From: Bdellovibrio sp.
GTDB lineage: Bacteria; Bdellovibrionota; Bdellovibrionia; Bdellovibrionales; Bdellovibrionaceae
NCBI GenBank assembly: GCA_036676395.1
Contig: JAKFCY010000002.1
Coordinates: forward strand, 2,016,001 to 2,080,000
DNA: 64,000 nt
Direction of reading: 5' to 3'
Both the position numbers and the translations under genes were made by a program. Under the pieces are notes generated by a model, which was not told the origin of the DNA, made no database searches, and saw only the letters and a list, made by a program, of their open reading frames with translations. Of the stretch, positions 17,425-49,791 are shown piece after piece (the first letter of the stretch is position 1; each line of letters opens with the position of its first letter).

Positions 17425-18288
17425 ATGAAACCAACAGTAAAAGAATTTTTTGATCAAGCCACTTGGACCATGACTTACGTGGTTTACGATGCCGCGACAA
17501 AAGATGCCGTTATTCTTGATCCTGTCTGGGATTACGACCCGGCGGCCTCTAAAATGTCATCACAATCAGCCGAACAGGTTTTAACCTTTGTTAAAGAAAA
17601 TAAGCTTAAAGTGCATTACATTCTTGAAACCCATGCCCATGCAGACCATGTCAGCGGTTCACAAATTCTAAAAGAAAAACTTCCGGGAACAAAAGTAGGC
17701 ATTGGCGCAAAAATCACTGAAGTGCAAAAAGTTTTTAAAGATGTTTTTAATCTTGACCCGAATTTTAAAACCGACGGCAGTCAATTCGATTTACTTTTAA
17801 ACGAAGAGCAAGTGCTTGAAGCCGGAACATTAAAAATAAAAACAATCTACACCCCGGGCCACACCCCAGCCTGTTCAAGTTATGTGATTGGCGATGCAGT
17901 GTTTACCGGAGACGCCTTATTTATGCCCGACTACGGCACTGGCCGCTGTGATTTTCCGGCAGGCAGCGCAGATGATCTGTACACCTCAGTGCACGACAAA
18001 CTTTACCAACTACCAGACGATTACAGAGTGTTTGTTGGCCATGACTATTTACCCGATGGCCGGGCTTTGGCTTTTGAAACAACCATCGCCGAAGAAAAAG
18101 CTAAGAATGTGCAACTCAAACACGACACCAGTCGCCATCAATTTGTCGAATTTAGAAATACCAGAGATAAGACCTTAGCGGCACCAAGATTAATTTTACC
18201 CAGTGTACAAGTAAACATTGATGCCGGAAAACTTCCGGCACCAGAAAAAAATGGCACAAGTTATCTGAAAATTCCGATAAGGTCTTAA
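17425..18288 (+). CDS. Persulfide dioxygenase (ETHE1/Blh-type MBL)
   Basis: [34 protein letters not shown] and [11 protein letters not shown] motifs. Confidence 0.92.
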
Positions 18289-18482
18289 AACTTCTTATTA
18301 ATTTTGCACGTGTTAATTCCAAAGATTGCATAAGGTGGGCACCAGCCCATCAAACCAGTCAGTAAAGGAATTAACCCAAGCAAAAACCAATAATTTACAG
18401 GCCCCCAGAATGCCATTGATGTTAAAAAAATGCCGACGGCAATTCGCACGATTCTTTCAGTAGGATGGATATTTTTTTTCAT
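18285..18482 (-). CDS. DUF2892 (YgaP-like) small membrane protein
   Basis: MKKNI...ERIVRI...[14 protein letters not shown] signature. Confidence 0.88.
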
Positions 18483-19288
18483 ATTTTTCTCTCAGTGCTT
18501 TCAAAAATTTTATTTGCAGAATCGGCAACAAATCCCTGAAAGATTTCTCCACTTTTTGTGGGATATCGTTTAGCAAATTCATAATAACAAGCCGGAATAT
18601 CAAATTCACCCTCTGCAAACGAGACGGGAACCCTATTTGCCATGGTTGAACTTTGTTCAAGATAAACAGCAGGGCTTCCTTTAATGGCGCCACCAGCCGT
18701 GTTTAAAATAAAGCCATTTTCTAGCAAAAATGAATTTAACTCTTCCATGCAGTTTAATTTTTTAAGGTGATTCACATCAACAGTAAAATGATTGGGTCTA
18801 AAACCATGCGCATAAACCCAAGCCACATATTCACTTTCAAGAAGTAATTTTTTATAAACTTCATAACTAGCGGGCCAAGGGCGCCCCAAGTACATAAAGG
18901 CAAGACTATCCATTTTTGTTTTATCCATCTGAGCCACTACATTATTGACGACGTCTTGTAAAAAAGATGACCCTTGGGTTAAATCAAATTCAGAAATAAA
19001 TACTTTAGGCATGCATATATCAATATGTTCAAAATGTTTGGCTTTTAATTTTTTCGCCGCAAAATCATAGACCCCGACTTGCTTGTAGCCATAATTTAAA
19101 AAATGCTGGCTTAAAATGTCGGTCGTTATAACTGGATGTGAAAAAGTTCGAAAAGCGATGTGATCATTGACCACTTCTTCGCCAGCCGTTGTCAGGGCCT
19201 GATAAACGGCTTTGGCCTGTGGGTTAAGACTACAATAATCGATCCACATTTTTTTTAAATGAACGGAAAGTTCTTGTTTTTTTGTCAT
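18479..19288 (-). CDS. DUF1338 protein (2-oxoadipate dioxygenase/decarboxylase-related)
   Basis: NDHIAFRTF, PKVFISE, ESEYVAW, NHFT, LEQSST and YYEFAKR motifs. Confidence 0.88.
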   Translation of the reverse strand: MTKKQELSVHLKKMWIDYCSLNPQAKAVYQALTTAGEEVVNDHIAFRTFSHPVITTDILSQHFLNYGYKQVGVYDFAAKKLKAKHFEHIDICMPKVFISEFDLTQGSSFLQDVVNNVVAQMDKTKMDSLAFMYLGRPWPASYEVYKKLLLESEYVAWVYAHGFRPNHFTVDVNHLKKLNCMEELNSFLLENGFILNTAGGAIKGSPAVYLEQSSTMANRVPVSFAEGEFDIPACYYEFAKRYPTKSGEIFQGFVADSANKIFESTERKI

Positions 19289-19572
19289 GGGTTCTCCTTA
19301 TTTTGACTTGGATAAGTTTTGCTTAATTCAATGAGTGATTGCACAAAATTTTTTATGCGATCGGATGTTGTATTTTTGTCTAAAGATTGAATAAACCTAA
19401 AATAAACTTCTCGCTCCTGAGCTTCATCAATAATTGGACAGTCCGTAATTTGTTTGAGTTTAAAAATATCTTCCGCCAGTGTTATGCGTTGTTGGCAAAG
19501 TAAAACAATTTGCTGATCAAGTTCACCGATTTGTTGACGTTTTTTTTCAATCGCCTCATTAATCATTGTCAC
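19285..19572 (-). CDS. AroQ-type chorismate mutase (stand-alone)
   Basis: IEKKRQQIGELDQQIVLL...R...KLK...PIIDEAQE pattern of CM type II. Confidence 0.75.
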   Translation of the reverse strand: MTMINEAIEKKRQQIGELDQQIVLLCQQRITLAEDIFKLKQITDCPIIDEAQEREVYFRFIQSLDKNTTSDRIKNFVQSLIELSKTYPSQNKENP

Positions 19573-20812
19573 CTACCAAAAGCGATCCTTCTTGTGCTCC
19601 GGAAAAACCATCGGCGTAGACATGAAATTCACCGCTACCGGAATGCACTTCATTTCTCTCTTCACCCTTGCTGTCAGTCACTTTTAAAATCTGAATGCGC
19701 TGCGAAGATCCATCTGGACAAATCAGACCCATCGATTGTCCTGGGTAGACCTTATTTTTTATTTCAACAAGGGCTTGCTGAGAATTAATAATTTTTTTTA
19801 CCAGTCCGACGAATTTGTAGTCTGGATTATAAGTGGTACTAGATTGATAATTCTGGCCTTGATGGTTTGGATTTTCAAACATAAAGCCTGTATGATAACC
19901 CCGGTTGGTTAACTTATTCAGTTCATTCTGCCAATAAGGATTAAAAGGTTTATTCGCCGTCAAATCATCTAAAGCCCCGCGGTAAGCTCTTGCCACCATA
20001 GCAGCATAAAATTCAGATTTGGTGCGCCCTTCGACTTTAAAAGAAATGACACCGGCCTCTGCCAATTGCTGCAAATGAGCTATCATACATAGATCTTTTG
20101 CATTTAAAATGTAAGTGCCTTCCGCGTCTTCTTCGATTTGAAATTGCGAAGCGGAATTATCATCGGTGCGTTCGATAAAATGCTGCTTTTCTGTGAGCTT
20201 ATATTTTTCACGGCAAGAGTTATCGCACACGCCTTGATTGGCATCTCGGCGCCCCATATACGAAGAAAGTAAACACCGGCCAGAATAGGCAATGCAAATT
20301 GAACCATGCACAAATGCCTCAAGCTCAACGTCCGGAACTCTTTGTTTGATTTCAGAAATTTCTGCGATCGACAATTCGCGACTTAGAATAACACGCTCAA
20401 CGTTTAATGTTTCTCTCCAGAACTTAACAGCTTGCCAGTTCATGCAATTTGCTTGAACCGAAAGATGAATAGGAATTTCAGGAGCTAACTCACGTGTTAT
20501 TGCAATTAAACCGGGGTCACTCATAATAAAAGCGTCAGGCTTAAGATTGGCGTATTTTGAAATTTCATTTCTAAATGGGCTTAATTTTCGGTTACGTGCA
20601 AAAATATTTAAGGCCATGTAAACTTTTTTTTGCTTTTGCTGAGTATAACGAATGGTCTCGGCCATTGTTTCAAGATCAAACTCATTTTCACGCGCACGCA
20701 AACTAAACAAAGGTGGCCCTAGGTAAACCGCATCGGCACCGTAGGCCAAAGCCAATTTCATTTTTACAGGCGATCCGGCTGGCATAAGTAATTCAAGTTT
20801 GTTAAAGCTCAT
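19559..20812 (-). CDS. trhP: Peptidase U32 family, TrhP/YegQ-like tRNA hydroxylase
   Basis: ELLMPAG, YGADAVY, HLSVQAN, LSRELS, EAFVHGSICIAYSGRCLLS, DANQGVCDNSCR and KVEGRTKS motifs. Confidence 0.85.
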   Translation of the reverse strand: MSFNKLELLMPAGSPVKMKLALAYGADAVYLGPPLFSLRARENEFDLETMAETIRYTQQKQKKVYMALNIFARNRKLSPFRNEISKYANLKPDAFIMSDPGLIAITRELAPEIPIHLSVQANCMNWQAVKFWRETLNVERVILSRELSIAEISEIKQRVPDVELEAFVHGSICIAYSGRCLLSSYMGRRDANQGVCDNSCREKYKLTEKQHFIERTDDNSASQFQIEEDAEGTYILNAKDLCMIAHLQQLAEAGVISFKVEGRTKSEFYAAMVARAYRGALDDLTANKPFNPYWQNELNKLTNRGYHTGFMFENPNHQGQNYQSSTTYNPDYKFVGLVKKIINSQQALVEIKNKVYPGQSMGLICPDGSSQRIQILKVTDSKGEERNEVHSGSGEFHVYADGFSGAQEGSLLVGDND

Positions 20813-20829
20813 ATTCCACGACCATCCAA

Positions 20830-21450
20830 TTACCAAGCAGTTCGCGGCTCTATGCGGGGATTCATAATTTGAAATCTATCATTAAGCTGCAAACCAAGGT
20901 CTGCGTGACTAAAACTTAAAAGTTTTCCGTATTTAAGGAATGTTTCACAAAAATCAGGTTCAATCCTATAGAGATAAATTTGCTGAACACCTTGGTTGTT
21001 CTGTTTGCGCATAGCAAATGAACTTTTAGAGGTGCAACCGCCACTTCGAACTTGTATGAAAACACCATGATTATTGTTATAATGGCCATACACTGCTTCT
21101 AAAGGAACCTCAGCTTTTGCTCTGGGTGCGACATAAGGATTCATAATTTTGAAGCGATCACGATATTGTAATCCTAAGTCTTCATAAGTAAAATTGAGTA
21201 TCATTCCATATCTAAAAAACGCTTTACATAAATCTGGTTTAATTCTGTAAAAATAGATAAGCGCCACGCCTCTGGAATTCTGTTTTTGTACTGCGAAAGA
21301 ATCTTTACTTGTACACCCGCCACTGAAAACTTGAATACTGACACCTGACTGATTATAAAAATCCCCATAGAGAGACTCTAAAGTAGGTGTAGTGTGGCCA
21401 CTAATTGAGAATAATAACGCTACCGTCATCAAAATAACTTTGTTTTTCAT
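20830..21450 (-). CDS. Secreted protein with two tandem ~87-aa domains
   Basis: Signal peptide; repeated IQVxSGGCTSKxSF...YRIxPDxC...DLGLQ...RFxIMNP unit. Confidence 0.8.
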   Translation of the reverse strand: MKNKVILMTVALLFSISGHTTPTLESLYGDFYNQSGVSIQVFSGGCTSKDSFAVQKQNSRGVALIYFYRIKPDLCKAFFRYGMILNFTYEDLGLQYRDRFKIMNPYVAPRAKAEVPLEAVYGHYNNNHGVFIQVRSGGCTSKSSFAMRKQNNQGVQQIYLYRIEPDFCETFLKYGKLLSFSHADLGLQLNDRFQIMNPRIEPRTAW

Positions 21451-35602: not shown

Positions 35603-36682
35603 ATGAGCTTACCAACTCTTAAAAAGATCATCCATGTCGACATGGATGCATTTTATGCTTCTGTTGAACAGCGTGATCACCCAGAATACAAGGGTAAACC
35701 CGTAGCTGTCGGTTACGCCGGTGCACGCGGCGTTGTGGCTGCGGCCAGTTATGAAGCCCGAAAATTTGGTGTGCGATCAGCTATGGCTTCGGCGACAGCA
35801 CTTCGCAAATGCCCGTCTTTGGTTTTTCTTCCTACACGCTTTGATGTTTACAAATCTATTTCAAAACAAATTCACGAAATTTTTTCTGAATACACTTCAT
35901 TAATTGAGCCTCTTTCGCTTGATGAGGCCTATCTTGATGTTACAGAAAATATTAAAGGCTTAAAATCAGCCACTGTCACGGCTGAAGAAATTCGCCGGCG
36001 TATTTTTGATGCCACCAAACTTACCGCTTCAGCTGGCATTTCATACAATAAATTTTTAGCTAAGATTGCCTCTGATATTAAGAAACCTAATGGTCAGTTT
36101 ACAATTCTGCCTTCGCAAGGCGAAGAATTTATTGAAAAACTAAAGATCGAAAAATTTTATGGTATTGGCCCTGTAACTGCAAAAAAAATGAAAGGCTTAG
36201 GTATTCATAACGGGGCTGATCTTAAAAAACAGTCGCTGCTATTTTTAAAAACTCATTTTGGAAAAACCGGTGAATGGTATTATGCCATCGCCCGCGGTGA
36301 AGATGATCGCCGCGTTGAGCCAGACCGCCCGCGCAAATCATACAGTTCTGAAAATACTTTTGCCGCTGATTTATTTGAACAGGCTGAGGTTACTAAAGAA
36401 GCTTTAAAGTTGATGGATGAAGCCTGGCTCTGGAGTGAAAAAAATAAAATCTTTGGCCGAACCGTGACGATTAAAATTAAATTCAGCGATTTTAAACAGA
36501 TTACACGTTCTCGCAGCCTTACTGTTCAAATTGACTCCAGAGACGTCATTGAAAAATTAATTATAGAATTAATTCAAGGAATATTTCCGCTGGAGTTAGG
36601 CATTCGTTTAATCGGTGTAGGTCTTTCAAACTTTGATCATATTGAAGAAGAAATTACAAGTCAGTTAAGTCTTCTTACTTAA
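35603..36682 (+). CDS. dinB: DNA polymerase IV
   Basis: HVDMDAFYASVEQ, SYEARKFG, SLDEAYLD and KFLAKIASD motifs. Confidence 0.95.
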   Translation: MSLPTLKKIIHVDMDAFYASVEQRDHPEYKGKPVAVGYAGARGVVAAASYEARKFGVRSAMASATALRKCPSLVFLPTRFDVYKSISKQIHEIFSEYTSLIEPLSLDEAYLDVTENIKGLKSATVTAEEIRRRIFDATKLTASAGISYNKFLAKIASDIKKPNGQFTILPSQGEEFIEKLKIEKFYGIGPVTAKKMKGLGIHNGADLKKQSLLFLKTHFGKTGEWYYAIARGEDDRRVEPDRPRKSYSSENTFAADLFEQAEVTKEALKLMDEAWLWSEKNKIFGRTVTIKIKFSDFKQITRSRSLTVQIDSRDVIEKLIIELIQGIFPLELGIRLIGVGLSNFDHIEEEITSQLSLLT

Positions 36683-39600
36683 CTTTGACACAAACTTTCG
36701 ATTTTGGATGCAGTTCGCAAAGTGCTGATTTTAGTTCGGCAGCTTGCGATTCGGCTTTAATCGCTCGCGAAGAAGCGTCTTCAGCAATATTTCTAAGTTG
36801 AGCATTTTCAGCCTTTATCTTAGCAATCTCTGAGTGAATCTCATGCGAATCGTGAAACCAGACACTGTAGAACTCTTTCAATGCATTGATCAGAAGGGGA
36901 ATAATTTCAACGTACTTAACACCTAACATGCCGTTGGATTTTCGCTCAATCGCTTCAGGTAAAACTTTTTCAACGTCTTGGGCAATCACACCCACGCGAC
37001 GAGGAGCAGACTCAGAATCAGTGTTGTAAAGATAAGTCATCCCATTTAGCTGCAGAGCTTTTTCAAGAGCTGATTCAATCGGGCGAATATGTTTTTTAAG
37101 ACGGCGATCAGAGTTAGCAGCCCAACTTGTACCACCGTTACTCATCCACTGCCCCGTGCCTGAGCCATTGTAAATAATAAAGCTTCCAGTTCCACCTTCA
37201 GGCCCGACTGACCACGAAGCCGTTGGATTCGATAACTTAAGTGGCGTACCGCTCGAATGAGCATGTAAAATTGCTCCCGGATTAGTAAGGCCAATACCAA
37301 CCTCACCAGTTGAGTGCTCGACATAAACCTTACCGTCAGCAAGATAAACATCACCACTGGCATTGTTTACACTCATTGGTCTTAAAGTATTCCACGTGCC
37401 ATACTGATTTCCTGAAGCTGTTAACAGTGGCATATAGGTATTAACGCCATCATTTCTGATCATGGCTGCGTAATTGCCGCCAATAGCCCGAAAATTCGCA
37501 TAGGTGCCTAGTGCCGCAACGACTTCGCCATTTACATCCAACTTTTGTTGCGGTGATGTTTTACCTATACCGACATTACCACCAGCGTCTTGTAAAACTA
37601 AGGCCTGACTCACGTTCGAACCAATTGACATAAAAGCATTTGCTGGGGTGGCGTTATAAGTCCATTTAATACGTCCACGATTGGTCGCATCTTGTCCTAA
37701 TGTAAATAGAGTATTTGCGTTTGCACTTCCAAGAGTTATTGAACTAAGAGGATTTGCCATTGCACCTAAATCTGCACCAACAGAAAGAATATTTGCAGGC
37801 GATGATGTACTCACACCGACATAACCGGCCGGAGTAATAACCATCGAAGGGTTAACATGACCGGAGTTTACACCATTTTGATCTGCATTTAAGTATAAAT
37901 AACTTAACGTACTGCTTGTAGCCAGAGCACCAAAGCTACCAAGTTTTGAACCACCATAACCTAAAGAAAACTCTCTGGCCCAGCTTCCAGAGTATGTATT
38001 TGAAGTATCAATATACGCGCCATATGTTGGACCACTGTACCCTAACCGAACTGCACCACCTGAAGTTCCCGCACTAATATCTAGCTGTGCAGCAGGTGCC
38101 GTCGTACCTATTCCGATGTTACCTGAACTTCCGGCAATAAATAATCTTGTCGTGTCGTTCGCAAACAAATGAAAATTATTTAAATTTTTTGTTCCTAAGA
38201 ATAAATCAGCTTCGGCGGCAATGGTATTTCCATCGAAGTTAAGTGAAGTTCCTGAGGCTTCTTGCACACGCATGACAGCGTTGTTTAAATTCAGCGAGCC
38301 CACTGAGCCCATCGTTGTGGATTCTAAAACATGAAGTCTTGTGGCTGGCGCGGACGTACCAATACCGACATTACCCGGAGATCGAATGACCATCCATTCT
38401 TTATCCAGAGAATCAGTTGTGGTGTGCCCACGAAAAACAAAGCCCCCATCAGTAGCTCCACTAGTTGAATTGCCATCCTGCATTTCTAAAACTATTGCAT
38501 CCAGGTTTGAACCGAAATAATTCGAATCACCCAACAGCCTAAACCCCTCGCCCATATTTGCAAAAATATTACCTGCAACATGTAGTTTTTCAGATGGCGC
38601 TGCTGTACCAACACCGACATCACCGGTTATGTAATTTATGCTAGTTCCAGAAGTATTCCATTGCGAAGATGTAAATGATCCACTCGCAGCTGGTGTATAA
38701 CCAAGTGCTGTAGTCACATCACCTGCGGCTAATGCTGCTGATGAAGTTACGCGCCCTTTAGCATTAACTGTTACTTTTGTGTATGTACCGGCCGTGACGC
38801 CACTGTTAGACAATACCAGTGTATTACTTGCCGCAGCTTTTGTTACATCACCTATGTAGGCCGGAGTTCTTGCAATAGCCAATGTTCCTGTTGCAGAAGC
38901 TGAACCTAAATCTATTGTTGAAGCCGTAGCAAATGTTCCTAATCCTAAATTTGTTCGTGCGGCCACGCTTGAAGCCAGATCACTTAAGTTATTGGCCTTG
39001 ACTAAATAATTTCCAAGAGCAGTTGCGCTTGCTGGCACATAACCTAGCACCTGCGCAACTGAGGCTGCGCTAGAAGTGATTTTATTACTAAACGTTGTAT
39101 AATCTGTATTTGATAAAAGACCCGCAGTTACAGAACCTGCCGAAGCTAATGGAATATTTAATCTATGGATTCCATTAGTTGTTACAAATGCCGGGGCAGT
39201 GCCCGTAGTTCCGTTTGCAAAACTTTGTGTTGCACTTGCTGAACCATTTAATGATTGCAGACCTTCACCCGATACGCCAAAGGCTGCCCAGGTTGTGCCA
39301 TCACAAAATTCTACATTGCCTGCGTTATAACGTAAGGTACCTGCGTAACTGACAGCACATATTGCTGATTCCATACTGATCTTTACACCACCACTGACAA
39401 CTAACTTTGTCACCGGAGCTGTAGTGCCAATGCCCACATTGCCTGTTGAAGTAATGCGAATTTTTTCTGTTCCCGAAGTTGAAAAACCTAATTCATTACT
39501 GCCACCAGAAGAATTTGGATTAAACATTCCCGTATCAGAATCCACATTAAACGCATACGAAGGCTGAGCTGCATTACCACCGGTAAAATAAATTTGCGGA

Positions 39601-42600
39601 CCCGCGCCCCCGGCATTAAAACTTAAACTGGAGCCAGACCAAGTTCCTTTAAGCGCACCTGCTACAGAAAAACCTAAATATCCGCCGGCATTGTACAGAC
39701 CTGTATTTGGATCACTTGCAAAAGTGATTGATGGCGAATTAAATGCGCCGTTACCTGCATATAGTTTATTTACTTTGACTGTACCGCTAACGTCTAAAGT
39801 TTGTGATGGATTAACTACACCAAGACCAACATTGCCTGTGTTATAAAATATAGACGTTGCACTTGTTGTCCATTGCGAAATTGTGAATGATCCACTTGCA
39901 GCTGGTGTATATCCAAGTGCCGTGGTTACATCACTTGATGCTAATGCCGCTGATGATGTTACACGGCCTTTTACATCGACTGTTACTTTTGTATATGTTC
40001 CGGCCGTAACACCGCTGTTAGATAACACCAGAGTATTACTGGCTGCTGCTTTTGTTACATCACCTGTATAACCTGGAGTTCTTGCAATTGCCAAAGTTCC
40101 TGTTGCACTTGCTGAACCTAAATCTATTGTTGAAGCCGTAGCAAATGTACCTAACCCTAAATTAGTTCGCGCTGCCGCATTTGAAGTAAGATCACTTAAG
40201 TTATTTGCTTTTACTAAATAACTTCCAAGTGCTGTTGCACTTGCTGGCACATAACCTAGCACCTGCGCAATAGATGCAGCTGATGAAGTAATTTTTCCTG
40301 CGAAATTTGCATAATCTGCATTTGAAATTAAGCCAGCCGTTGTTGTTCCCACCGATGCGAAAGGAATATTTAATGTATGAATTCCATTCAGCGTAGCAAA
40401 CCCAGGGGCAGTGCCCGTAGTTCCGTTTGCAAAACTTTGTGTTCCACTTGCTGAACCATTTAACGATTGAAGACCTGCACCTGATACCCCAAAGGCTACC
40501 CACGTTGTGCCATCACAAAATTCTACATTGCCAGCGTTATAACGTAATGTACCTGCGTAACTGACAGCACATGTTGCTGACTCCATACCAATGCGTAACC
40601 CACCATTCACATCTAATTTTGTAACTGGTGAACTCCAGCCAATACCGACATGACCTGTGTCAGCTAACTTCAAATAACCCGCGATATTTTGTAATTGCAC
40701 AGCGCCCGAAGTATGTTGCGAGTATATAGTAAAAGCTTTACTGCCTGCCGTTGGATACCCTACATAACCAGTGCGCATCGTAGAGCTTGCAGCGTGGGTA
40801 TAGAATTCTAAATAACCATGATCTGCCGGTGCGGTATTAAAAGCTGCAATGGCAGGAGCATTACTTTGCACATCTAATCTTCGCGTTGGATTGCTCGTTC
40901 CAACACCCATGTTGCCTGACAGGTTTATAGTAACCAGAGGCGTTGCTAAACCACGAGTTGTGCCGCTGGCATAAAATCTAAAACCGCCACTCGCGTCACC
41001 ATTAGAATCTGCGATAAATTCAACATAACCAGTATCGCGTATTAAAGTACCTGAGCCATCCCAAATAATATCGCGCGGAATGGTTGTAGAGTTGGGTATC
41101 AAACCTATACCTTTACCGCTTGTTGCAATTCTAATATCTCCATTCGCAACTTCAAGCCGCGATTCTGGTGATGCTGTTCCAATGCCGACATTGCCAGCTA
41201 TGTAATTTATTGTAGTTCCCGAAGTATTCCATTGCGACGAGGTAAACGATCCACTCGCTGCTGGTGTATAACCAAGAGTCGTAATAATCGCCGCACTTGT
41301 AGCCGCTTGTTTATTATTAAAAATATTCCAGTCACTTGCTGATAAATATCCGTTATCAGTTGAATTAGCTTGCGCGATGGACAATGTCGGATTTGAACCA
41401 CCGGTGCTGCTGATCGGACCAGTTACTGTAATTGAAGCCACTGTGCCGCTGGCTCCAGCATCAAAAACACAAGCAAAGCCTGAACCATTAAAAGTTATGT
41501 AATGATTGCCCGCACAAGTTGGAATACTGCGGTTCACATATTTTGAACCATCATATTGAAGAATGTCATTCGCTGTTAAGCTGCTCACCGTGACCGATAC
41601 CCCTTGGATACGATTCACAGTGATGTTTGAAATAATTCCTGAAATATCTCCGGCAAAAGCTGAAGTTGTGCTTAAAACTGTATTTGGTAAGTCAGACAAC
41701 AATAATGTAGTGGCTCCGCTGGTTACGCGGCCCTTGTTGTCTGTGATAACTTTGAAATAAGTTCCGGCAGTTCCGATGTTAGCTAATCCCAGCGCTGGCG
41801 TAGATCCACCCGTTGAAGTGATTTCATTCAAAGTGCCTGACACACTGGTCACCGCACCAGTTGCTGAATCTATCCAAGATAAATTTCCAGTTCCATCAGT
41901 CGATAAGACTTGCCCTGTGGTACCACTGGTTGCTGGTAAAATTAAAGTGTAATTTGCACTCAGGCTTGTTGGCGCCTGCAGTCTGATGTTAAAACTTGTA
42001 CTTGGTTTGTAAATATCAACGTAATTGGTTTTTGTGCTATTTGCAAAAATATCATTTGCGGTGAAGTTTCCTGAACTATCACGTCTTACTAATGTGTTAA
42101 CAGAATTTGCCGCAGAAGCTACGGCATCAATTTGCGCCGTCACTGCCGCACCGCTGACTGGAGCATAACCTAATGTAGTTATAATTTCTGTACTGCTTGC
42201 ACCAAGCTTTGTTTTAAATTCGGCATAATCCAGAGATGTTAAATATCCATCATTTGACATTGATGCGGCCATGATACTGATCACCGGCGCTGATGCTGTT
42301 CCACCTGTAGTCAAAACCGTTCCGCTTGTGGTTACACTTGAAATTCCGCTGCTGCTTACACCAACTGGAATACAACTAAAACTAACACCGTTAAATTTAA
42401 TGGCTTCATTACTTTGGCAGCTGAGCGAAGCTAATGATGAATATTCAACAAACTCTGAATCAGATTTTCCGTTAAGTAGAGTTGTGTTTCCAGCCTTAGC
42501 GGCATACATCGCATAAGGTACCGCATTGATGGCCATTGCCGGCAATGTTTGCCAGCCGCTACTGTCTTGAAATTGCATCACAATTTTTCTAGCATCAGTC

Positions 42601-42959
42601 GCCGTCGGATTATAAATTCCTGGCGATTGACACGGAAATGAAACTGTCGAGTTATCAAACACTGATGCAAATGTTGTTGCACTGACTGGATACGATCTGG
42701 TTCCTGCGCCGAGGGTAAATGAAATAAGGCCGCCAGTACCAGTCATGTTTACTGCTGCATAATTTTCAACGTATAAAACACAAGAGGCCGCAGGGTCTAA
42801 AATTGTAAATCGAAAATTAACATTAGCCGCTTCAAGAGGATAGCCATCTGGCTTAACAATTTTGGCCTGGTATGTTGTACGTAATGGAGTGGCAAGCACC
42901 AGCGTTGCTGACAATAAAATAGCCGTAGATAGAATGATTTTTACGAGCTGACGAACCAC
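36675..42959 (-). CDS. Large trimeric fibre adhesin with a C-terminal S74 chaperone (Bdellovibrio MAT-like)
   Basis: Signal peptide, TYQAKI...VPYA N-domain, many GNVGIGTxxP repeats, C-terminal SDRRLK...GVIAQDVE...Y..IIPLLINALKE and a coiled coil. Confidence 0.88.
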   Translation of the reverse strand: MVRQLVKIILSTAILLSATLVLATPLRTTYQAKIVKPDGYPLEAANVNFRFTILDPAASCVLYVENYAAVNMTGTGGLISFTLGAGTRSYPVSATTFASVFDNSTVSFPCQSPGIYNPTATDARKIVMQFQDSSGWQTLPAMAINAVPYAMYAAKAGNTTLLNGKSDSEFVEYSSLASLSCQSNEAIKFNGVSFSCIPVGVSSSGISSVTTSGTVLTTGGTASAPVISIMAASMSNDGYLTSLDYAEFKTKLGASSTEIITTLGYAPVSGAAVTAQIDAVASAANSVNTLVRRDSSGNFTANDIFANSTKTNYVDIYKPSTSFNIRLQAPTSLSANYTLILPATSGTTGQVLSTDGTGNLSWIDSATGAVTSVSGTLNEITSTGGSTPALGLANIGTAGTYFKVITDNKGRVTSGATTLLLSDLPNTVLSTTSAFAGDISGIISNITVNRIQGVSVTVSSLTANDILQYDGSKYVNRSIPTCAGNHYITFNGSGFACVFDAGASGTVASITVTGPISSTGGSNPTLSIAQANSTDNGYLSASDWNIFNNKQAATSAAIITTLGYTPAASGSFTSSQWNTSGTTINYIAGNVGIGTASPESRLEVANGDIRIATSGKGIGLIPNSTTIPRDIIWDGSGTLIRDTGYVEFIADSNGDASGGFRFYASGTTRGLATPLVTINLSGNMGVGTSNPTRRLDVQSNAPAIAAFNTAPADHGYLEFYTHAASSTMRTGYVGYPTAGSKAFTIYSQHTSGAVQLQNIAGYLKLADTGHVGIGWSSPVTKLDVNGGLRIGMESATCAVSYAGTLRYNAGNVEFCDGTTWVAFGVSGAGLQSLNGSASGTQSFANGTTGTAPGFATLNGIHTLNIPFASVGTTTAGLISNADYANFAGKITSSAASIAQVLGYVPASATALGSYLVKANNLSDLTSNAAARTNLGLGTFATASTIDLGSASATGTLAIARTPGYTGDVTKAAASNTLVLSNSGVTAGTYTKVTVDVKGRVTSSAALASSDVTTALGYTPAASGSFTISQWTTSATSIFYNTGNVGLGVVNPSQTLDVSGTVKVNKLYAGNGAFNSPSITFASDPNTGLYNAGGYLGFSVAGALKGTWSGSSLSFNAGGAGPQIYFTGGNAAQPSYAFNVDSDTGMFNPNSSGGSNELGFSTSGTEKIRITSTGNVGIGTTAPVTKLVVSGGVKISMESAICAVSYAGTLRYNAGNVEFCDGTTWAAFGVSGEGLQSLNGSASATQSFANGTTGTAPAFVTTNGIHRLNIPLASAGSVTAGLLSNTDYTTFSNKITSSAASVAQVLGYVPASATALGNYLVKANNLSDLASSVAARTNLGLGTFATASTIDLGSASATGTLAIARTPAYIGDVTKAAASNTLVLSNSGVTAGTYTKVTVNAKGRVTSSAALAAGDVTTALGYTPAASGSFTSSQWNTSGTSINYITGDVGVGTAAPSEKLHVAGNIFANMGEGFRLLGDSNYFGSNLDAIVLEMQDGNSTSGATDGGFVFRGHTTTDSLDKEWMVIRSPGNVGIGTSAPATRLHVLESTTMGSVGSLNLNNAVMRVQEASGTSLNFDGNTIAAEADLFLGTKNLNNFHLFANDTTRLFIAGSSGNIGIGTTAPAAQLDISAGTSGGAVRLGYSGPTYGAYIDTSNTYSGSWAREFSLGYGGSKLGSFGALATSSTLSYLYLNADQNGVNSGHVNPSMVITPAGYVGVSTSSPANILSVGADLGAMANPLSSITLGSANANTLFTLGQDATNRGRIKWTYNATPANAFMSIGSNVSQALVLQDAGGNVGIGKTSPQQKLDVNGEVVAALGTYANFRAIGGNYAAMIRNDGVNTYMPLLTASGNQYGTWNTLRPMSVNNASGDVYLADGKVYVEHSTGEVGIGLTNPGAILHAHSSGTPLKLSNPTASWSVGPEGGTGSFIIYNGSGTGQWMSNGGTSWAANSDRRLKKHIRPIESALEKALQLNGMTYLYNTDSESAPRRVGVIAQDVEKVLPEAIERKSNGMLGVKYVEIIPLLINALKEFYSVWFHDSHEIHSEIAKIKAENAQLRNIAEDASSRAIKAESQAAELKSALCELHPKSKVCVKVK
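38610..40655 (-). repeat. Internal ~0.83-kb direct repeat (copies ~38610-39445 and ~39820-40655, period 1212 bp)
   Basis: TCACAAAATTCTACATTGCC at 39301 and 40513; near-identical peptide CAVSYAGTLRY...GYTPAASGSFT. Ends approximate. Confidence 0.9.
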
Positions 42960-43180: not shown

Positions 43181-43270
43181 GTGACAACCTGTCATTTGCT
43201 CATGACAAAGTGGCTGACTTTTCTAACGAGAATCATTTTATTCAACTTTTAACATGGCGGTAGTTTTGAA
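43181..43270 (+). promoter_or_regulatory. Paired activator boxes and sigma54-like promoter for the cbb3 operon
   Basis: GTGACAACCTGTCAT (43181-95), ATGACAAAGTGGCTG (43202-16) and TGGCGGTAGTTTTGA (GG 43256-57). Confidence 0.68.
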
Positions 43271-45539
43271 TTGTACTTCATTAATGGCAAACACTGCATC
43301 CATCACATTTTGTTTACACTGTGGAATTCCCACTCAGGGAAAAGCTTTCTGCTGTGCTGGATGTGAATCCTTAGCCAATGATTTTTCTACGGTTGATACT
43401 TCAACTGAAAAATTCGATTACCTGGACCAGCCTAATTTTAAAGAAATGTACAGACATCTAGAAAAAGACTTCGATTACTATCTGTATGTTGAAGGAATCC
43501 ATTGCTCGTCTTGTGTTCATTTAATCGAAAAATTAAATGATTATGATCCAAATATATTAGAAGCTCGCGTAAATTATCCGCTTTCGCAATTGGCGATTAA
43601 AACAAATATTGATTTTTCTTTAGCCCGGTTAGCTGCACTACTTTCTTCATGGGGATACACCCCACACTATATCTGCACCTCTTCTAATAAAGAGGATTTC
43701 TTTAAAAAAGAAAATAAAAAGTCGTTAATACGTTTGGGTGTAGCTGGCGCCTGTGCTGGCAATATCATGCTATTTGTAATTCCAGTTTATTCAGGTTTGC
43801 AAAGCCCTTTAAAAGAAATATTTAATTGGCTTAGTTTTATTTTATTTCTTCCGGTTCTTTTTTATGCAGCCACTCCTTTTTATCAAGGCGCACTAAATAG
43901 TCTAAGATACCGAGTCATTAATGTCGATTTACCAATTACTATAGCTTTTCTAAGTAGTTTTATTTTCTCGCTGGTGAATTTAGTGCGTGGAAATTCAATG
44001 ATCTATTTTGATTCGACCGCTAGCTTTGTGTTCTTAATTTTATGCGCACGGCATCTGTTGAAAAACATTCAATATAGGTTCGATAATTCTATTCAGATTC
44101 ACGATATCTTGCAGTCTGATCTGGTGACTAAAGTTGTTGGCGGCACAGAAACTAAAATATCATTAAGTGAAATAAAACTTGGTGATATTTTGAAGTTTGA
44201 AAGAAATGCCATTATTCCAGTTGATGGAAAGCTATTAAGCGAAAAAGCTTCACTTGATGTGGCTGTTCTTAACGGAGAACCGCTTCCTCAGTTTTTTGAA
44301 AAGGGTTTACTGGTTATCGCTGGATCTAAAATTCTATCTTCACAAATTGAAATTGAAGTGACCCAGACACCGAACTCTACCTACCTGGCAAAAATGATGC
44401 AACAATTGCAGGATGGCACATGGGTAAAAACAAAATGGGCTAATCTTTCAGACAAGGCTTCGCAGTATTTGATAGTCATCGTCTTTACTGCCGCGATTAT
44501 ATATTTTGTTTTAAATTATGAACAAAATTTTAATGAAGCCTTTAACAGATCTTTGGCTTTGATCGTTCTAGCCTGCCCTTGTGCTTTAGCTTTTGGAACT
44601 CCTTTAACTTTGGCTTTAACATTAAGAAAAGCTAAGCAGCTAGGCATATTAATTAAAGATGCTAATGTTTTAGAAAAAGTTTTAAACCTTAAAAATATCT
44701 TTTTTGATAAAACGGGAACTTTAACAGAGCTAAATATTCATCTTGCTAAAACTTCACCCGAAAATTTAAATGTTGAGATTAAAGAGATCATCTTAGGTTT
44801 AGAAAGCAACTCGTATCATCCACTGGCCTTTGCTTTAAGAAATGCCTGGCAGGATATCAAGCCGCAGGCTTTTACATCCACGACTGAAAAAGCTGGCGTA
44901 GGTGTAACCGGAATTCTGGCAAACCAAAGTTACACTTTAGAAAAAAGTAAAGAATCCAATGATAGCCTTTGCGTAGAGCTCTATAAAAATCATGAATTCA
45001 TTTGTGCATTGCACTTCGAAGAGGTTCTTCGAATAGATGTCGGCACTTGCCTGTCACATTTAAACGCCCAGGGTTATGCTACCTATTTACTGACTGGTGA
45101 TCACCATAACCGGGCCCTTAAAATCGCTGACCGATGTCAAATTCAGGCTTCTTCTGTTTTTAGCTCTCTGACACCTGAAAACAAAAAAAATATTGTAAGC
45201 CAGCATCAGAATAGCTGCATGATTGGCGATGGCGTAAATGATGCCCTGGCCATGCAGCAGGCCGATGTAGGCATTGCTGTGCAAGGCAGTACTTTCGTAA
45301 GCCTTAAAGCTGCAGATATTTTCTTTACCCGCGGCGGCTTAAAGCCACTCATTGATTTAGTCAATCTGGCTCGACAAAGCCGAAAAGTGCTTCTGCGCAA
45401 TCTTACATTTGCTTTTATTTATAATGCTACCGGAGGAGTTTTAGCCCTGATGGGCTTCATTGACCCAAGATGGGCTGCGATTTTAATGCCGATAAGTTCG
45501 GTTTTAATAATTTTATCTACGCTGGTGGGATTTAGATGA
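43254..45539 (+). CDS. ccoI: Copper-translocating P1B ATPase for cbb3 assembly
   Basis: CLHCG...FCCAGC, HCSSC, CPCAL, DKTGTLT and GDGVND motifs; real start may be ATG 43284. Confidence 0.9.
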   Translation: MAVVLNCTSLMANTASITFCLHCGIPTQGKAFCCAGCESLANDFSTVDTSTEKFDYLDQPNFKEMYRHLEKDFDYYLYVEGIHCSSCVHLIEKLNDYDPNILEARVNYPLSQLAIKTNIDFSLARLAALLSSWGYTPHYICTSSNKEDFFKKENKKSLIRLGVAGACAGNIMLFVIPVYSGLQSPLKEIFNWLSFILFLPVLFYAATPFYQGALNSLRYRVINVDLPITIAFLSSFIFSLVNLVRGNSMIYFDSTASFVFLILCARHLLKNIQYRFDNSIQIHDILQSDLVTKVVGGTETKISLSEIKLGDILKFERNAIIPVDGKLLSEKASLDVAVLNGEPLPQFFEKGLLVIAGSKILSSQIEIEVTQTPNSTYLAKMMQQLQDGTWVKTKWANLSDKASQYLIVIVFTAAIIYFVLNYEQNFNEAFNRSLALIVLACPCALAFGTPLTLALTLRKAKQLGILIKDANVLEKVLNLKNIFFDKTGTLTELNIHLAKTSPENLNVEIKEIILGLESNSYHPLAFALRNAWQDIKPQAFTSTTEKAGVGVTGILANQSYTLEKSKESNDSLCVELYKNHEFICALHFEEVLRIDVGTCLSHLNAQGYATYLLTGDHHNRALKIADRCQIQASSVFSSLTPENKKNIVSQHQNSCMIGDGVNDALAMQQADVGIAVQGSTFVSLKAADIFFTRGGLKPLIDLVNLARQSRKVLLRNLTFAFIYNATGGVLALMGFIDPRWAAILMPISSVLIILSTLVGFR

Positions 45540-45682
45540 ACATTTTGATCATTATTATTCCTATCGCGTTAGCGCTGGGTTTTGGATTTGTATTTATTTT
45601 TGTGTGGGCAACTAAAAGTGGTCAATTTGATGATCTCGATACACCTTCACACAGAATTTTGAAAGATGATGAAAGGAAATAG
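45536..45682 (+). CDS. ccoS: cbb3 oxidase maturation protein CcoS (48 aa, not in ORF track)
   Basis: MNILIIIIPIALALG...WATKSGQFDDLDTPSHRIL; ATGA overlap with ccoI. Confidence 0.9.
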   Translation: MNILIIIIPIALALGFGFVFIFVWATKSGQFDDLDTPSHRILKDDERK

Positions 45683-45683
45683 A

Positions 45684-47786
45684 GTGAAAGAGTTCATTAA
45701 ATATGATGACGAGATTGTCAAAAAATTTGTTTTGGCGACTTTAATTTGGGGAGGCTGTGCATTTATCTTCGGTTTGCTGGCCGCACTGCAATTAGCTTAC
45801 TGGCCGCTAAATATGAATTTAGAATGGGTTACTTTTGGCCGGCTTCGCCCGCTGCATACCAATGCTGCTATTTTTGCATTCGCAGGAAACGCGATTTTTG
45901 CAGGAATATATTATTCAACGCAAAGATTACTCAAAGCACGGTTGTTTTCTGATGGGCTTTCAAAAATTCACTTTTGGGGCTGGCAATTTATTATTGTTGC
46001 CGCAGCTATTTCGCTGCCTTTAGGCTACACGCAGTCTAAAGAGTACGCCGAGCTAGAATGGCCCATTGATATCGCGATCACCTTGATTTGGGTGGTTTTC
46101 GCCGTCAATTTTTTCGGAACTATCAAAAAACGCCGCGAAAAACATTTGTATGTCGCTATCTGGTTTTATATTGCGACGATAATCACTGTTGCTGTTTTAC
46201 ATGTCGTAAATTCAATCGAAATACCTGTAGCCGCTTTTAAGAGCTTGCCGATTTATGCCGGCATTCAAGATGCTCTTGTTCAATGGTGGTATGGGCATAA
46301 TGCAGTAGCTTTTTTTCTGACGACGCCATTTTTAGGGCTAATGTATTATTTTGTTCCTAAAGCAGCTGATCGTCCGGTTTATTCTTATCGACTTTCAATC
46401 ATTCACTTTTGGGCCTTGGTTTTTATCTACATCTGGGCCGGCCCACATCATTTACTTTACACTTCTCTTCCGGATTGGGCACAGAACTTAGGAATGGTAT
46501 TTTCTATTATGTTATGGGCTCCTAGCTGGGGCGGAATGATCAACGGCTTGCTCACAATTAAAGGGGCATGGCATCGGCTAAAAACTGATCCTATTATTCG
46601 ATTTTATATTGCCGCACTTACTTTTTACGGCATGGCCACATTTGAAGGCCCACTACTATCGATCAAAAGTATTAGCGCTTTAGGTCACTACACAGACTGG
46701 ATCATCGGGCATGTTCATGCTGGCGCTCTTGGCTGGAATGGCATGTTAATTTTTGCTATGTTCTATTATTTAATTCCAAGATTATGGAATACAAAAATTT
46801 ATAGTGAAAAATTAATTCATCATCACTTCTGGATAGCCTTAACCGGTGTAATTCTTTATTACACATCAATGGTCGTAGCTGGTATTACGCAAGGTCTGAT
46901 GTGGCTATCGATCACACCAGAAGGACAACTGACTTATCCCGATTTTATTGAAACCGTTACAAAAATTATTCCTCTCTACTGGGCACGCGCTCTGGGTGGA
47001 GCATTCTTTATCGTTGGTTTTGCAATAATGATTTACAACATTTACAAAACTATTAAAAATGCCCCGCAAGCCGCTGAAGAAAAATCTGTAGAAGTCTCAA
47101 GAACAGGCTTTGAAGAACAAGCAGAAGGCCACCGAAAAATCGAAGGCCTTGGATTAACTTTTTCAATTCTAACTTTTTTAGCTATTGCTGCCGGTTCGAT
47201 TATTGAAATTTATCCAACGCTTTCTCTGCATCGCTATATCAATCCGAACGACACAACAAAGCCATTTTCTGCTTTAGAAATTGCAGGGCGTGGAATTTAT
47301 GTGCGCGAAGGATGTTATAACTGCCACTCACAGCAAATTCGTCAGATACCGGCAGACGTTTTACGTTATGGCCCGGCATCGACAATCGAAGAATCCCAAT
47401 ATGATCGTCCGTTTCAGTGGGGATCTAAACGCACCGGCCCAGATCTGGCGCGTATAGGTAAAAAATATCCGCATATGTGGCACTTAAATCATATGTTGAA
47501 TCCAAGAACTATCGCCGCAAAAAGTATAATGCCGAATTACCCTTGGCTATTTGAGAAAAACACAGATTTTTTAGCGCTACGCAGAGAGTTTTCTGTCATG
47601 AAAAAATTAGGTGTGCCTTACGACGAAAATACCGTAGCCAATGCAGACATTCTTGCGCAAAAAGAAGCCAAGTTGATTGCTGATGATATTTCTGCAAATG
47701 GAGGTCCTGCCGGCTTAGAGAAAAAAGAAATCGTCGCCTTGATCGCTTATTTACAATCATTAGGGCAAAAAGGAGCAAATCCATGA
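45684..47786 (+). CDS. ccoN: cbb3-type cytochrome c oxidase, fused subunits I and II
   Basis: RLRPLHTN, QWWYGHNAV, WAGPHHL and IGHVH, then CcoO motifs EGCYNCHSQ and WGSKRTGPDL; GTG start with AAGGA RBS. Confidence 0.95.
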   Translation: MKEFIKYDDEIVKKFVLATLIWGGCAFIFGLLAALQLAYWPLNMNLEWVTFGRLRPLHTNAAIFAFAGNAIFAGIYYSTQRLLKARLFSDGLSKIHFWGWQFIIVAAAISLPLGYTQSKEYAELEWPIDIAITLIWVVFAVNFFGTIKKRREKHLYVAIWFYIATIITVAVLHVVNSIEIPVAAFKSLPIYAGIQDALVQWWYGHNAVAFFLTTPFLGLMYYFVPKAADRPVYSYRLSIIHFWALVFIYIWAGPHHLLYTSLPDWAQNLGMVFSIMLWAPSWGGMINGLLTIKGAWHRLKTDPIIRFYIAALTFYGMATFEGPLLSIKSISALGHYTDWIIGHVHAGALGWNGMLIFAMFYYLIPRLWNTKIYSEKLIHHHFWIALTGVILYYTSMVVAGITQGLMWLSITPEGQLTYPDFIETVTKIIPLYWARALGGAFFIVGFAIMIYNIYKTIKNAPQAAEEKSVEVSRTGFEEQAEGHRKIEGLGLTFSILTFLAIAAGSIIEIYPTLSLHRYINPNDTTKPFSALEIAGRGIYVREGCYNCHSQQIRQIPADVLRYGPASTIEESQYDRPFQWGSKRTGPDLARIGKKYPHMWHLNHMLNPRTIAAKSIMPNYPWLFEKNTDFLALRREFSVMKKLGVPYDENTVANADILAQKEAKLIADDISANGGPAGLEKKEIVALIAYLQSLGQKGANP

Positions 47787-47947
47787 AACAGGGCTTACTG
47801 CACTTTACTGATATCTATTTAACTTCATTTGGCTTGATTATATTTTTCTGCTTTTTTATGAGTGTGATTTTTATCACTTCGAAAGCAAAAAACAAACAGC
47901 TTTATAAAAGATTAGAACACCTACCATTTGGGGAACACCATGAGTGA
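47783..47947 (+). CDS. ccoQ: cbb3 oxidase small subunit CcoQ (54 aa, not in ORF track)
   Basis: AGGAG RBS, one TM helix, ends ...LEHLPF; lies between ccoNO and ccoP. Confidence 0.75.
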   Translation: MKQGLLHFTDIYLTSFGLIIFFCFFMSVIFITSKAKNKQLYKRLEHLPFGEHHE

Positions 47948-48509
47948 AGAAAAAAATGAAACCGAAGTATCTAAACATCATTACGACGGCATCTATGAGT
48001 CTGATAATCCTATGCCTTATTGGTGGATCTGGAGTTTTATTCTGACGGTCATCTTTGGATCAATTTATTATCTTCATTATGAAGTTTCAAATGGGCCAAG
48101 TTTAAAACAAGAACTGGCCGAGGCCATGAAAGAAATTGAAAGCCGAAAAGGTCACGTCGCCCTTGTGGTAGAAACAGAAGAATCACTTATTGCGCAAATG
48201 AAAAGTCCAAATGATTTAGCATTGGGTGTTGCTGTTTATAACGCAAAATGTGCGATGTGCCATGGCCAAGACCTACAAGGCCAGATCGGACCAAATTTAA
48301 CTGATCGCTATTGGATTCATGGCAAAGGCCTTAGAACAGATCTAGTTAAAATTATTCACGAGGGCATTCCCGAAAAAGGAATGCCACCATGGCGCGATCA
48401 GATCAGCAAAAAAGAATTGTATGGCGTTATAGCTTATATTATTTCGAAAATTGATTCTAACCCAAAAAATGCGAAAGCACCTCAAGGCGATTTGGCGAGT
48501 GAAAACTAA
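47940..48509 (+). CDS. ccoP: cbb3 oxidase subunit III (mono-haem)
   Basis: HHYDGIYESDNPMPYWW, CAMCH, GPNLTD and GMPPW motifs. Confidence 0.9.
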   Translation: MSEEKNETEVSKHHYDGIYESDNPMPYWWIWSFILTVIFGSIYYLHYEVSNGPSLKQELAEAMKEIESRKGHVALVVETEESLIAQMKSPNDLALGVAVYNAKCAMCHGQDLQGQIGPNLTDRYWIHGKGLRTDLVKIIHEGIPEKGMPPWRDQISKKELYGVIAYIISKIDSNPKNAKAPQGDLASEN

Positions 48510-49791
48510 AAAAGAAATTGGCAAATTAACCAGTATTGATGACGAAGGTCATCACATTCAGCTAATTCCCGGCGAGGTCAAAGGTACGTATAAAAATTTA
48601 CGTACTGTTGTTCAATTTTTTTTAGTTTTGCTATTTCTAATAGCCCCATGGATAAAAATAGATAGTCACCCGTTGATCTTATTCAATATCGCATCACGCG
48701 AGTTTTATTTATGGGGAGTTCTTTTTAAATCGCACGATGCTCCCCTGATATTTCTTCTGCTGATAACCGCAGTTCTTGGAATATCATTTGTAACAAGCCT
48801 TTGGGGGCGCATCTGGTGCGGCTGGGCTTGTCCGCAAACAGTATTTATCGATGGTGTATTTCGACGAATAGAGCTTTTAACTGAAGGAAACTACCTTGAA
48901 CGGCGAAAAATTCAAAACAGCCCGTTAACTGTAAAAATATTTTTTAAAAAATCTGTTAAATGGGCATTGTTTTTTTTAATAAGTTTTTTGATCGCCAAAA
49001 GTTTTTTAAATCTTTTTGCCGGAGTTCCCGATTGGATGCTCTGGGGGCTGACTTGGATTTTACTTTTTAATTTTTCTTGGTTTCGCGAACAATTTTGCGT
49101 AGTGGTCTGCCCGTATGGACGAATTCAAAGTGTTTTGCTTGAGCCTTCTTCGATGGCCGTTGTTTATGATGAAAAACGAACAGATTGCATCAATTGCAAC
49201 CGCTGCGTAGAAGTTTGCCCGACTGGAATTGACATTCGAAATGGCTTACAAATGGATTGCATTGGCTGCACAGCCTGCATTGATGCCTGCAACACCATTA
49301 TGAAAAAAGTTGATAAACCGAAGAACCTTATTTCATACCGCACAATTGATGGAACTCGCTTTAGCTTTTTCAAACTAAAAACATGTATTCATGCTCTTCT
49401 AATTTTAATCGCGATCACAATATTAGTTTACAACCTCAACACCAGAAAACACGAAAACATCGCTATTGTAAGAGCTACAGAACAACCTTTCTCTATTGTG
49501 TTAGATGAAAATGGAAACAAACAAATTCTAAATCATTTTAAAATTCATATAACAAATCAAACATATGAAAATCGCACCTATACAATTTCACTTTTAAATA
49601 ATAGTGCTAAATTAATCACTTCAGTAAACCCCAAAGTACTTACTGCTAAATCAACTATGACCTTACATGTATTTATAAGCACCGCGCTCGTAACACTTAG
49701 TTCTGATCAAGCGACCTCCGCGACTTTAATTATAGAAAATGACAAAAAAGAAAAGCACAGTGAAGTCGTTACCTTAATAGGACCAACATGA
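48499..49791 (+). CDS. ccoG: cbb3 accessory 4Fe-4S membrane protein
   Basis: GRIWCGWACPQT, REQFC...CPYGRIQ, CINCNRCVEVCPTGIDIR and CIGCTACIDAC; GTG start inferred. Confidence 0.9.
   Translation: MKTKKEIGKLTSIDDEGHHIQLIPGEVKGTYKNLRTVVQFFLVLLFLIAPWIKIDSHPLILFNIASREFYLWGVLFKSHDAPLIFLLLITAVLGISFVTSLWGRIWCGWACPQTVFIDGVFRRIELLTEGNYLERRKIQNSPLTVKIFFKKSVKWALFFLISFLIAKSFLNLFAGVPDWMLWGLTWILLFNFSWFREQFCVVVCPYGRIQSVLLEPSSMAVVYDEKRTDCINCNRCVEVCPTGIDIRNGLQMDCIGCTACIDACNTIMKKVDKPKNLISYRTIDGTRFSFFKLKTCIHALLILIAITILVYNLNTRKHENIAIVRATEQPFSIVLDENGNKQILNHFKIHITNQTYENRTYTISLLNNSAKLITSVNPKVLTAKSTMTLHVFISTALVTLSSDQATSATLIIENDKKEKHSEVVTLIGPT

Follow-up and report, generated by a model that had tools for sequence, protein, structure and literature searches.

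What does a lone chorismate mutase (CM) do when its gene overlaps that of an RNA hydroxylase? The question is raised by a locus of Bdellovibrio sp. (assembly GCA_036676395.1, contig JAKFCY010000002.1) within a stretch of 64,000 nucleotides, referred to here as the window (G000:C2:2016001-2080000); the source genome, G000, is 3.4 Mb in size and 99.3% complete. The minus strand encodes a trhP-type U32 Fe-S hydroxylase of 417 amino acids (19559..20812; PF01136, E 4e-86, and PF16325), followed by a stand-alone AroQ-fold CM (93 amino acids at 19285..19566 from an ATG start, or 95 amino acids to 19572 from a GTG start; PF01817, 46.5 bits, with the cut-off at 27) and a 269-amino acid Fe(II) dioxygenase–decarboxylase of the DUF1338/HglS family (HGLS; 18479..19288; PF07063, E 1e-25). 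All three reading frames were present across the span in which the original prediction had placed three overlapping genes: the U32 stop and the CM start overlap by 8 nt (ATG start) or 14 nt (GTG start), and the CM stop and the DUF1338 start share an ATGA. The comparisons described below, which are based on sequence, indicate that the most likely function of the CM is to provide prephenate for RNA hydroxylation.

The U32 protein resembles TrhP

The window U32 protein contains Peptidase_U32 and Peptidase_U32_C domains without DUF3656, and is 43.6% identical to Escherichia coli TrhP versus 32% to RlhA. The six positions that Sakai et al. (2019) mutated in the E. coli enzyme (E162, H166, C170, C177, C193, and C197) are all conserved, as E165, H169, C173, C180, C196, and C200. 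In a quick tree of 20 rows with long outgroup branches, the protein fell in a clade with E. coli TrhP (SH-aLRT support of 98), from which RlhA and UbiU/V were separate. The trhP-like identity first assigned from the sequence is backed by these domains, the identity, the six residues, and the clade, and assignment to RlhA or UbiU was ruled out by NCBIfam scores, identity, and the tree. No other U32 gene was found in the G000 genome.

The genomic setting is likewise reminiscent of E. coli TrhP (YegQ; Sakai et al. 2019, PMC6599085), with which the window protein shares both domains, the six essential residues, and an accompanying trhO. A PF01596 O-methyltransferase, which we infer to be TrmR, is also present in G000, and searches of this genome for CmoA and a true CmoB returned weak generic matches only. 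The resulting set of trhP, trhO, and PF01596 methyltransferase without CmoA/CmoB is the list given for B. bacteriovorus in the supplements of Sakai et al. (TrhP, RlhA, TrhO, and TrmR, without CmoA/CmoB; PMC6599085) minus RlhA. The 33 tRNA genes detected in G000 (tRNAs may drop out of assemblies) serve the Ala, Pro, and Ser(UCN) boxes by U34 tRNAs alone. Two further groups of U32 Fe-S enzymes also need prephenate, namely E. coli RlhA (Kimura et al. 2017, PMC5727448) and UbiU/UbiV (Kazemzadeh et al. 2024, PMC10990095).

Chorismate is made, but no Phe/Tyr branch was found

G000 encodes AroC, whose gene is clustered with those for DHQ synthase, EPSP synthase, and a shikimate-kinase fusion (aroB/aroA/aroK-type) and for a DAHP synthase without a CM domain. 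The same cluster holds genes for chorismate-binding, thiamine pyrophosphate-enzyme, hydrolase, and UbiE-type proteins (men-type), so that chorismate is probably made there for menaquinone. Neither prephenate dehydratase (PDT) nor prephenate dehydrogenase (PDH) was found in the G000 genome, with the positive controls detected in 14/14 cases, and tblastn of G000 with seven PDT/PDH-bearing proteins gave no match. Because both are missing from the search results, the window U32 is the sole known prephenate consumer found in G000, and there is no known Phe/Tyr branch from which the CM could be separate. The CM is itself the only CM_2 match in the genome, where AroH was also not found. With aroC present and PDT and PDH not found, the dedicated prephenate supply proposed in the original prediction is supported more strongly than had been suggested. 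E. coli TrhP draws its prephenate from PheA/TyrA of the amino acid pathway, whereas at the window locus a stand-alone CM is coupled to the U32 gene. A PheA protein reduced to its CM function restores TrhP-dependent 5-hydroxyuridine at tRNA position 34 (ho5U34) in E. coli (PMC6599085).

CM genes recur beside two subfamilies of U32 genes

A first set of 41 genomes, consisting of G000 and 40 relatives, contained no PDT, whereas aroC was present in 35, a strong U32 match in 14, and a CM in 13; two further genomes with marginal U32 matches (E 9e-4) were counted as negative. All 13 genomes with a CM also had a U32 gene, and the two were clearly adjacent in 12, with the CM after trhP in 5 and before a two-domain rlhA (with DUF3656) in 7. 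In the thirteenth genome (G026), where the contig ends, the CM faces a fragment of U32. The same CM family thus abuts rlhA in relatives of a genome whose own U32 protein is neither RlhA nor UbiU. Both arrangements occur in cultured Bdellovibrio strains, where CM genes lie beside trhP (L061) or rlhA (genomes of L062 and L063).

A second set, drawn evenly from the phylum and comprising 161 genomes (six of them common to the first set besides G000), was also examined. In the window's family (17 genomes), a CM was found in 11 and a U32 gene in the same 11, with PDT and PDH in none; all 11 CMs are adjacent to U32, and six are convergent to rlhA (arrangements taken from coordinates, with the sequence inspected for G138 only). 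By hand tally, CM and U32 occurred together in 46 of the 161 genomes, CM only in 7, and U32 only in 5. Six of the seven CM-only genomes have PDT or PDH, and the seventh (G123) has a fusion of DAHP synthase and CM near a CmoA-like gene. Among the 31 genomes that have a CM and lack both PDT and PDH, 30 have U32; 14 of these 30 add little, coming from one family in which U32 is universal (32/32) and the CM usually takes the form of a long fusion. A family-specific CM profile built from 40 U32-linked CMs found no CM in 32 genomes without U32 (0/32) and weak CMs in 3/5 U32-only genomes.

At the level of loci, a CM gene lies directly downstream of U32 at 31/67 GTDB loci (63 with enough downstream DNA) and at 15/35 metagenome loci (27 with enough), these two sets overlapping each other and the relatives. 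Of the neighborhood in the original prediction, the adjacency of U32 and CM is therefore more than chance. The strongest argument for a role of the CM in RNA hydroxylation is that CMs recur next to U32 genes of two different subfamilies and in three arrangements, in genomes without a Phe/Tyr branch, and that one CM clade holds both kinds. The clade in question is supported (97/93) and contains both rlhA-linked and trhP-linked members; with 23/44 inner branches open, the CM tree does not show that the linked CMs arose only once. When the window U32 and one related CM served as queries against a phage collection, no adjacent pair was seen among the matches listed (best 30 of 44; 6/6).

At L103:2053-6197 and L020:6102-9864, rlhA and CM adjoin a gene for an RlmI-like 23S rRNA C5-methyltransferase, forming an rRNA-modification cluster. 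Within the phylum draw, only G123 has a CM while lacking PDT, PDH, and U32. Here, at L104:2852-7502 (G123:C8), the DAHP-synthase–CM fusion lies three genes upstream of the CmoA-like gene, which scores 160 bits on TIGR00740 and falls short of the cut-off, and of an asparagine-synthase-like gene; CmoA is another prephenate consumer. Divergent CM-like proteins of 138–145 amino acids with a C-terminal extension were seen in other families of the phylum (L096:3677-4105, L105:2928-3344, and L093:4418-4855).

Active-site residues of the U32-linked CMs

The window CM scores below every NCBIfam CM cut-off. Its AlphaFold model has a pLDDT of 91 and three helices, and a fold search with this model gave E. 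coli CM (1ecm) as the best match, with a probability of 1.00 but an E-value of 0.03 (fold E-values were above 0.001). In E. coli numbering, R11, R28, K39, D48, E52, and S84 are kept, with Q at position 51 and P at position 88; R11, R28, K39, D48, and E52 are the core AroQ charged residues listed in PMC5526877. Together with the three-helix fold, these five residues are shared with known AroQ CMs (E. coli PheA CM, Mycobacterium tuberculosis CM (MtCM) of the AroQ-delta type, and the regulatory domain of Bacillus subtilis AroA(G)), from which the window CM differs in standing alone, in having no downstream PDT/PDH, and in the Arg51Gln change of its lineage.

Among the 40 U32-linked CMs, R11, R28, and K39 are retained in 40/40, R51 in 38/40, E52 in 36/40, and D48 in 32/40, whereas Q88 is found in 2/40. 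Position 88 is Q or E in 7/7 reference CMs, and Tyr occupies position 87 in 23/40 of the linked proteins; the C-terminal helix aligns loosely, which leaves position 88 uncertain for some rows. The motif DEAQE, which aligns to D48-x-x-R51-E52 of 1ecm, had been singled out in the original prediction as a departure from the DxxRE usual in AroQ enzymes. It is indeed present, but Arg51Gln is restricted to G000 and its closest relative, G018 (2/40), so that by these alignments DEAQE is a lineage-specific change and the family-wide deviation is the loss of Gln88 (38/40).

MtCM, which lacks a residue equivalent to Gln88, has a reported turnover of 1.8e3 per M per s by itself and of 2.4e5 with its partner (PMC7762937), which makes it plausible by analogy that the linked CMs are slow but real enzymes; the likeness is incomplete in that they have Lys39 rather than Arg. 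Isochorismate pyruvate lyase activity of the PchB type was considered and rejected: the window protein has D, E, and S at positions 48, 52, and 84, where PchB has Ala51/Val55/Tyr87 (table of PMC12329711).

Proposed role of the CM

In the proposed scheme, G000 would make chorismate in the aro–men cluster, and the small CM would turn a little of it into prephenate, as its fold and residues suggest; no known pathway in this genome leads on from there to Phe or Tyr. The co-translated TrhP, using its Fe-S cluster and prephenate as oxygen donor, would hydroxylate U34 of family-box tRNAs without O2, as expected from E. coli. The reaction would yield ho5U34, CO2, and phenylpyruvate (PMC6599085, PMC10990095), the last being the proposed by-product of prephenate-dependent U32 hydroxylation (PMC10990095). 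TrhP would thereby back up the O2-dependent TrhO and be useful when TrhO is short of O2, and the TrmR-like O-methyltransferase probably completes 5-methoxyuridine (mo5U). One CM per genome would serve whichever U32 protein is present, be it TrhP, RlhA, or both. The demand for prephenate would be only stoichiometric with RNA, so that a slow CM would suffice; this would account for the family-wide loss of Gln88.

The role under hypoxia suggested in the original prediction is one that we only infer, from E. coli TrhP/TrhO (PMC6599085), the presence of trhO, and micro-oxic genes in the window. FNR-like boxes occurred at chance level (5 found versus 5.07 expected). Micro-oxic and sulfur stress genes lie at 7558-30437 and 43254-50393 and encode NnrS, three Usp proteins, two TauE proteins, a rhodanese, a CRP/FNR-type regulator, a metallo-β-lactamase-fold protein, and cbb3-type oxidase.

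DUF1338 probably belongs to a catabolic neighborhood

The third gene had been included in the predicted module with its role left unexplained. Structure matches (PDB 3lho, E 2e-75; hydroxyglutarate synthase 6w1k, E 7e-29) and the retained His-His-Glu metal triad and specificity arginine (H43, H167, and E237, with R47) suggest that it is likely an ordinary 2-oxoadipate dioxygenase. These residues, which the protein shares with HglS/FLO7 hydroxyglutarate synthase, are tied to 2-oxoadipate activity, and HglS was inactive on the other keto acids tested (bioRxiv 10.1101/2020.01.30.927905). What sets the window copy apart is its position after the CM gene and a second, 52% identical copy in the same genome (G000:C2:1143989-1144777). 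HGLS genes were found in 28/41 genomes and are near-core in the genus (22/24), yet lie beside U32 in 3/41; counted by U32 locus, DUF1338 is adjacent at 2/67 GTDB and 6/35 metagenome loci. A three-gene module including DUF1338 is ruled out by these counts and the second copy elsewhere, and that part of the original prediction was not borne out.

The DUF1338 gene is best read as part of an amino acid catabolism island in which this trhP copy also sits. G018, with 92% nucleotide identity, carries an extra 2.86 kb with hmgA-hppD-phhA directly upstream of trhP (L011:7508-10367), giving the order hmgA-hppD-phhA-trhP-CM-hglS; blastn resolved two collinear segments, with the window side of the break at 20823..20849 (end at 20823, restart at 20849). 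G000 lacks the first three genes at this locus and has distant paralogs of them on contig C3. The pair hppD-phhA is directly upstream of trhP in G018, at 7/67 GTDB loci, and at 5/35 metagenome loci, and some other loci read hppD-phhA-trhP-hglS without CM. A tie of DUF1338 to U32 and CM through phenylpyruvate is possible but unsupported.

Evidence against a prephenate supply and competing explanations

Several observations weigh against the CM being kept to supply prephenate for RNA hydroxylation. The window U32 reached 455 bits against NF011996, the TrhP equivalog, with a cut-off of 534 (the next best was UbiU, at 202; two relatives' U32s also fell short, at 473 and 500 bits), which makes it TrhP-like by sequence but not a curated TrhP. 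Neighboring genes tend to be inherited jointly, so that co-occurrence is partly built in. In a tree-aware test based on aroC from the 35 genomes that have it, the distribution of U32 takes 8 changes to explain, of which at least 5 are forced; five independent pairs were supported, and CM followed U32 in 4–5 and went the opposite way in none, which by sign test is not significant (p 0.0625). Three genomes, G030 (99% complete), G057, and G183, have U32 but no CM by profile and no AroH. A further 34 GTDB genomes carry a trhP-like gene without an adjacent CM by the first profile, of which 13 have a CM beside another U32 match (one ∼1.7 kb away and one a contig-split piece), 8 only a fusion of 380–440 amino acids, 8 a stand-alone CM elsewhere, and 5 none. 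The PDH search was confined to G000 and the phylum draw. The window CM departs from the efficient AroQ-alpha type at two active-site positions (Q51 and P88), and its dN/dS in the G000/G018 pair is 0.37, versus 0.06–0.16 for six neighbors (18 changes, 7 synonymous and 11 non-synonymous); in the other four CM pairs, dN/dS was 0.12–0.33.

The small CM might be poor by itself and act as a bound partner of U32, being activated by the hydroxylase, handing prephenate to it, or only binding prephenate or chorismate as a carrier or regulator, much as the original prediction had allowed. We consider this unlikely. In its favor, Gln88 is kept in 2/40 linked CMs versus Gln/Glu in 7/7 references, position 87 is often Tyr (23/40), MtCM gains two orders of magnitude in complex with DAHP synthase (PMC7762937), and the U32 and CM genes are translationally coupled. 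On the other hand, the same CM lineage is found beside two U32 subfamilies only ∼32–36% identical, and sometimes in a convergent orientation, in which the genes are not co-transcribed; genomes with two U32 genes have one CM; position 88 is subject to the poor alignment of the C-terminal helix; and no U32–CM fusion was seen among 7990 scored longer candidates (2 matches, neither with U32), which is weak evidence. With similarly low probability, Gln88-less CMs of Bdellovibrionota could form a U32 accessory subclass, weak alone, that docks on TrhP/RlhA, delivers fresh prephenate, and is the missing partner for in vitro reconstitution.

Chorismate also rearranges uncatalyzed, and the CM of this lineage could be decaying and kept by linkage, with TrhP using spontaneous prephenate or TrhO doing the job. 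Arg51Gln confined to G000 and G018, the raised dN/dS (Fisher p 0.006 against U32, from rounded counts), the presence of trhO, and G030, which has trhP without any CM, are in keeping with decay, and constraint on the CM may be relaxed in this lineage. Decay itself nevertheless seems very unlikely, as the frame is intact in both genomes, dN/dS is below 1, R11, R28, K39, D48, and E52 are kept, and few substitutions were counted. It is also hard to credit that U32 instead hydroxylates a small metabolite of the catabolism island, as an O2-free bypass of its O2-dependent iron oxygenases (hmgA-hppD-phhA...hglS), with DUF1338 handling a 2-oxo acid product such as phenylpyruvate. The upstream hppD-phhA genes and the status of phenylpyruvate as proposed by-product (PMC10990095) would fit, but the U32 protein retains the C-terminal domain of TrhP and clusters with the E. 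coli enzyme, most trhP–CM loci have no catabolic genes, G000 keeps trhP–CM without hmgA-hppD-phhA here, and DUF1338 keeps the 2-oxoadipate-fixing arginine in a family whose HglS was inactive on every other keto acid tried (bioRxiv 2020.01.30.927905). Supply of prephenate for RNA hydroxylation therefore probably remains the function of the CM.

Other features of the window

The DUF1338 stop overlaps, again by ATGA, a fourth minus-strand gene absent from the original prediction, which encodes a YgaP-like small membrane protein of 65 amino acids (18285..18482; PF11127, E 2e-20) and is the probable last gene of the overlapping run. Directly upstream of trhP, 20830-21450 encodes a 206-amino acid protein with two internal repeats and without a Pfam match. 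A promoter and terminator scan of the window gave matches at chance level. At 36675-42959, a 2094-amino acid protein combines Gp34-like trimerization and S74 chaperone domains, as in a fiber-type adhesin.

Significance

The enzyme families involved are known, but their arrangement, in which predators with no Phe/Tyr branch probably retain a CM for the sake of RNA hydroxylation, was not found described. No U32-linked CM appeared in the literature searched (subscription journals, bioRxiv supplements, and one scanned supplement of Sakai et al. 2019 lay outside the search): "peptidase U32" with "chorismate mutase" returned only Kimura et al. (2017) and Sakai et al. (2019), and Bdellovibrio with chorismate and prephenate returned nothing (0). 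The passages of PMC5727448 and PMC10990095 that were available contain no CM linkage, and in the latter, direct hydroxylase activity of TrhP/RlhA is still described as undemonstrated.

A CM kept only with U32, in genomes without PDT/PDH, would provide independent genomic support for prephenate as the co-substrate of these enzymes, and would represent a shikimate-branch enzyme retained purely for RNA modification. Such genomes may offer a clean test system: with no other known prephenate sink, loss of the CM should affect RNA hydroxylation only, and the formation of labeled phenylpyruvate should depend on U32, which would test the proposed by-product. For annotation, the lesson is that a lone CM does not imply Phe/Tyr prototrophy.

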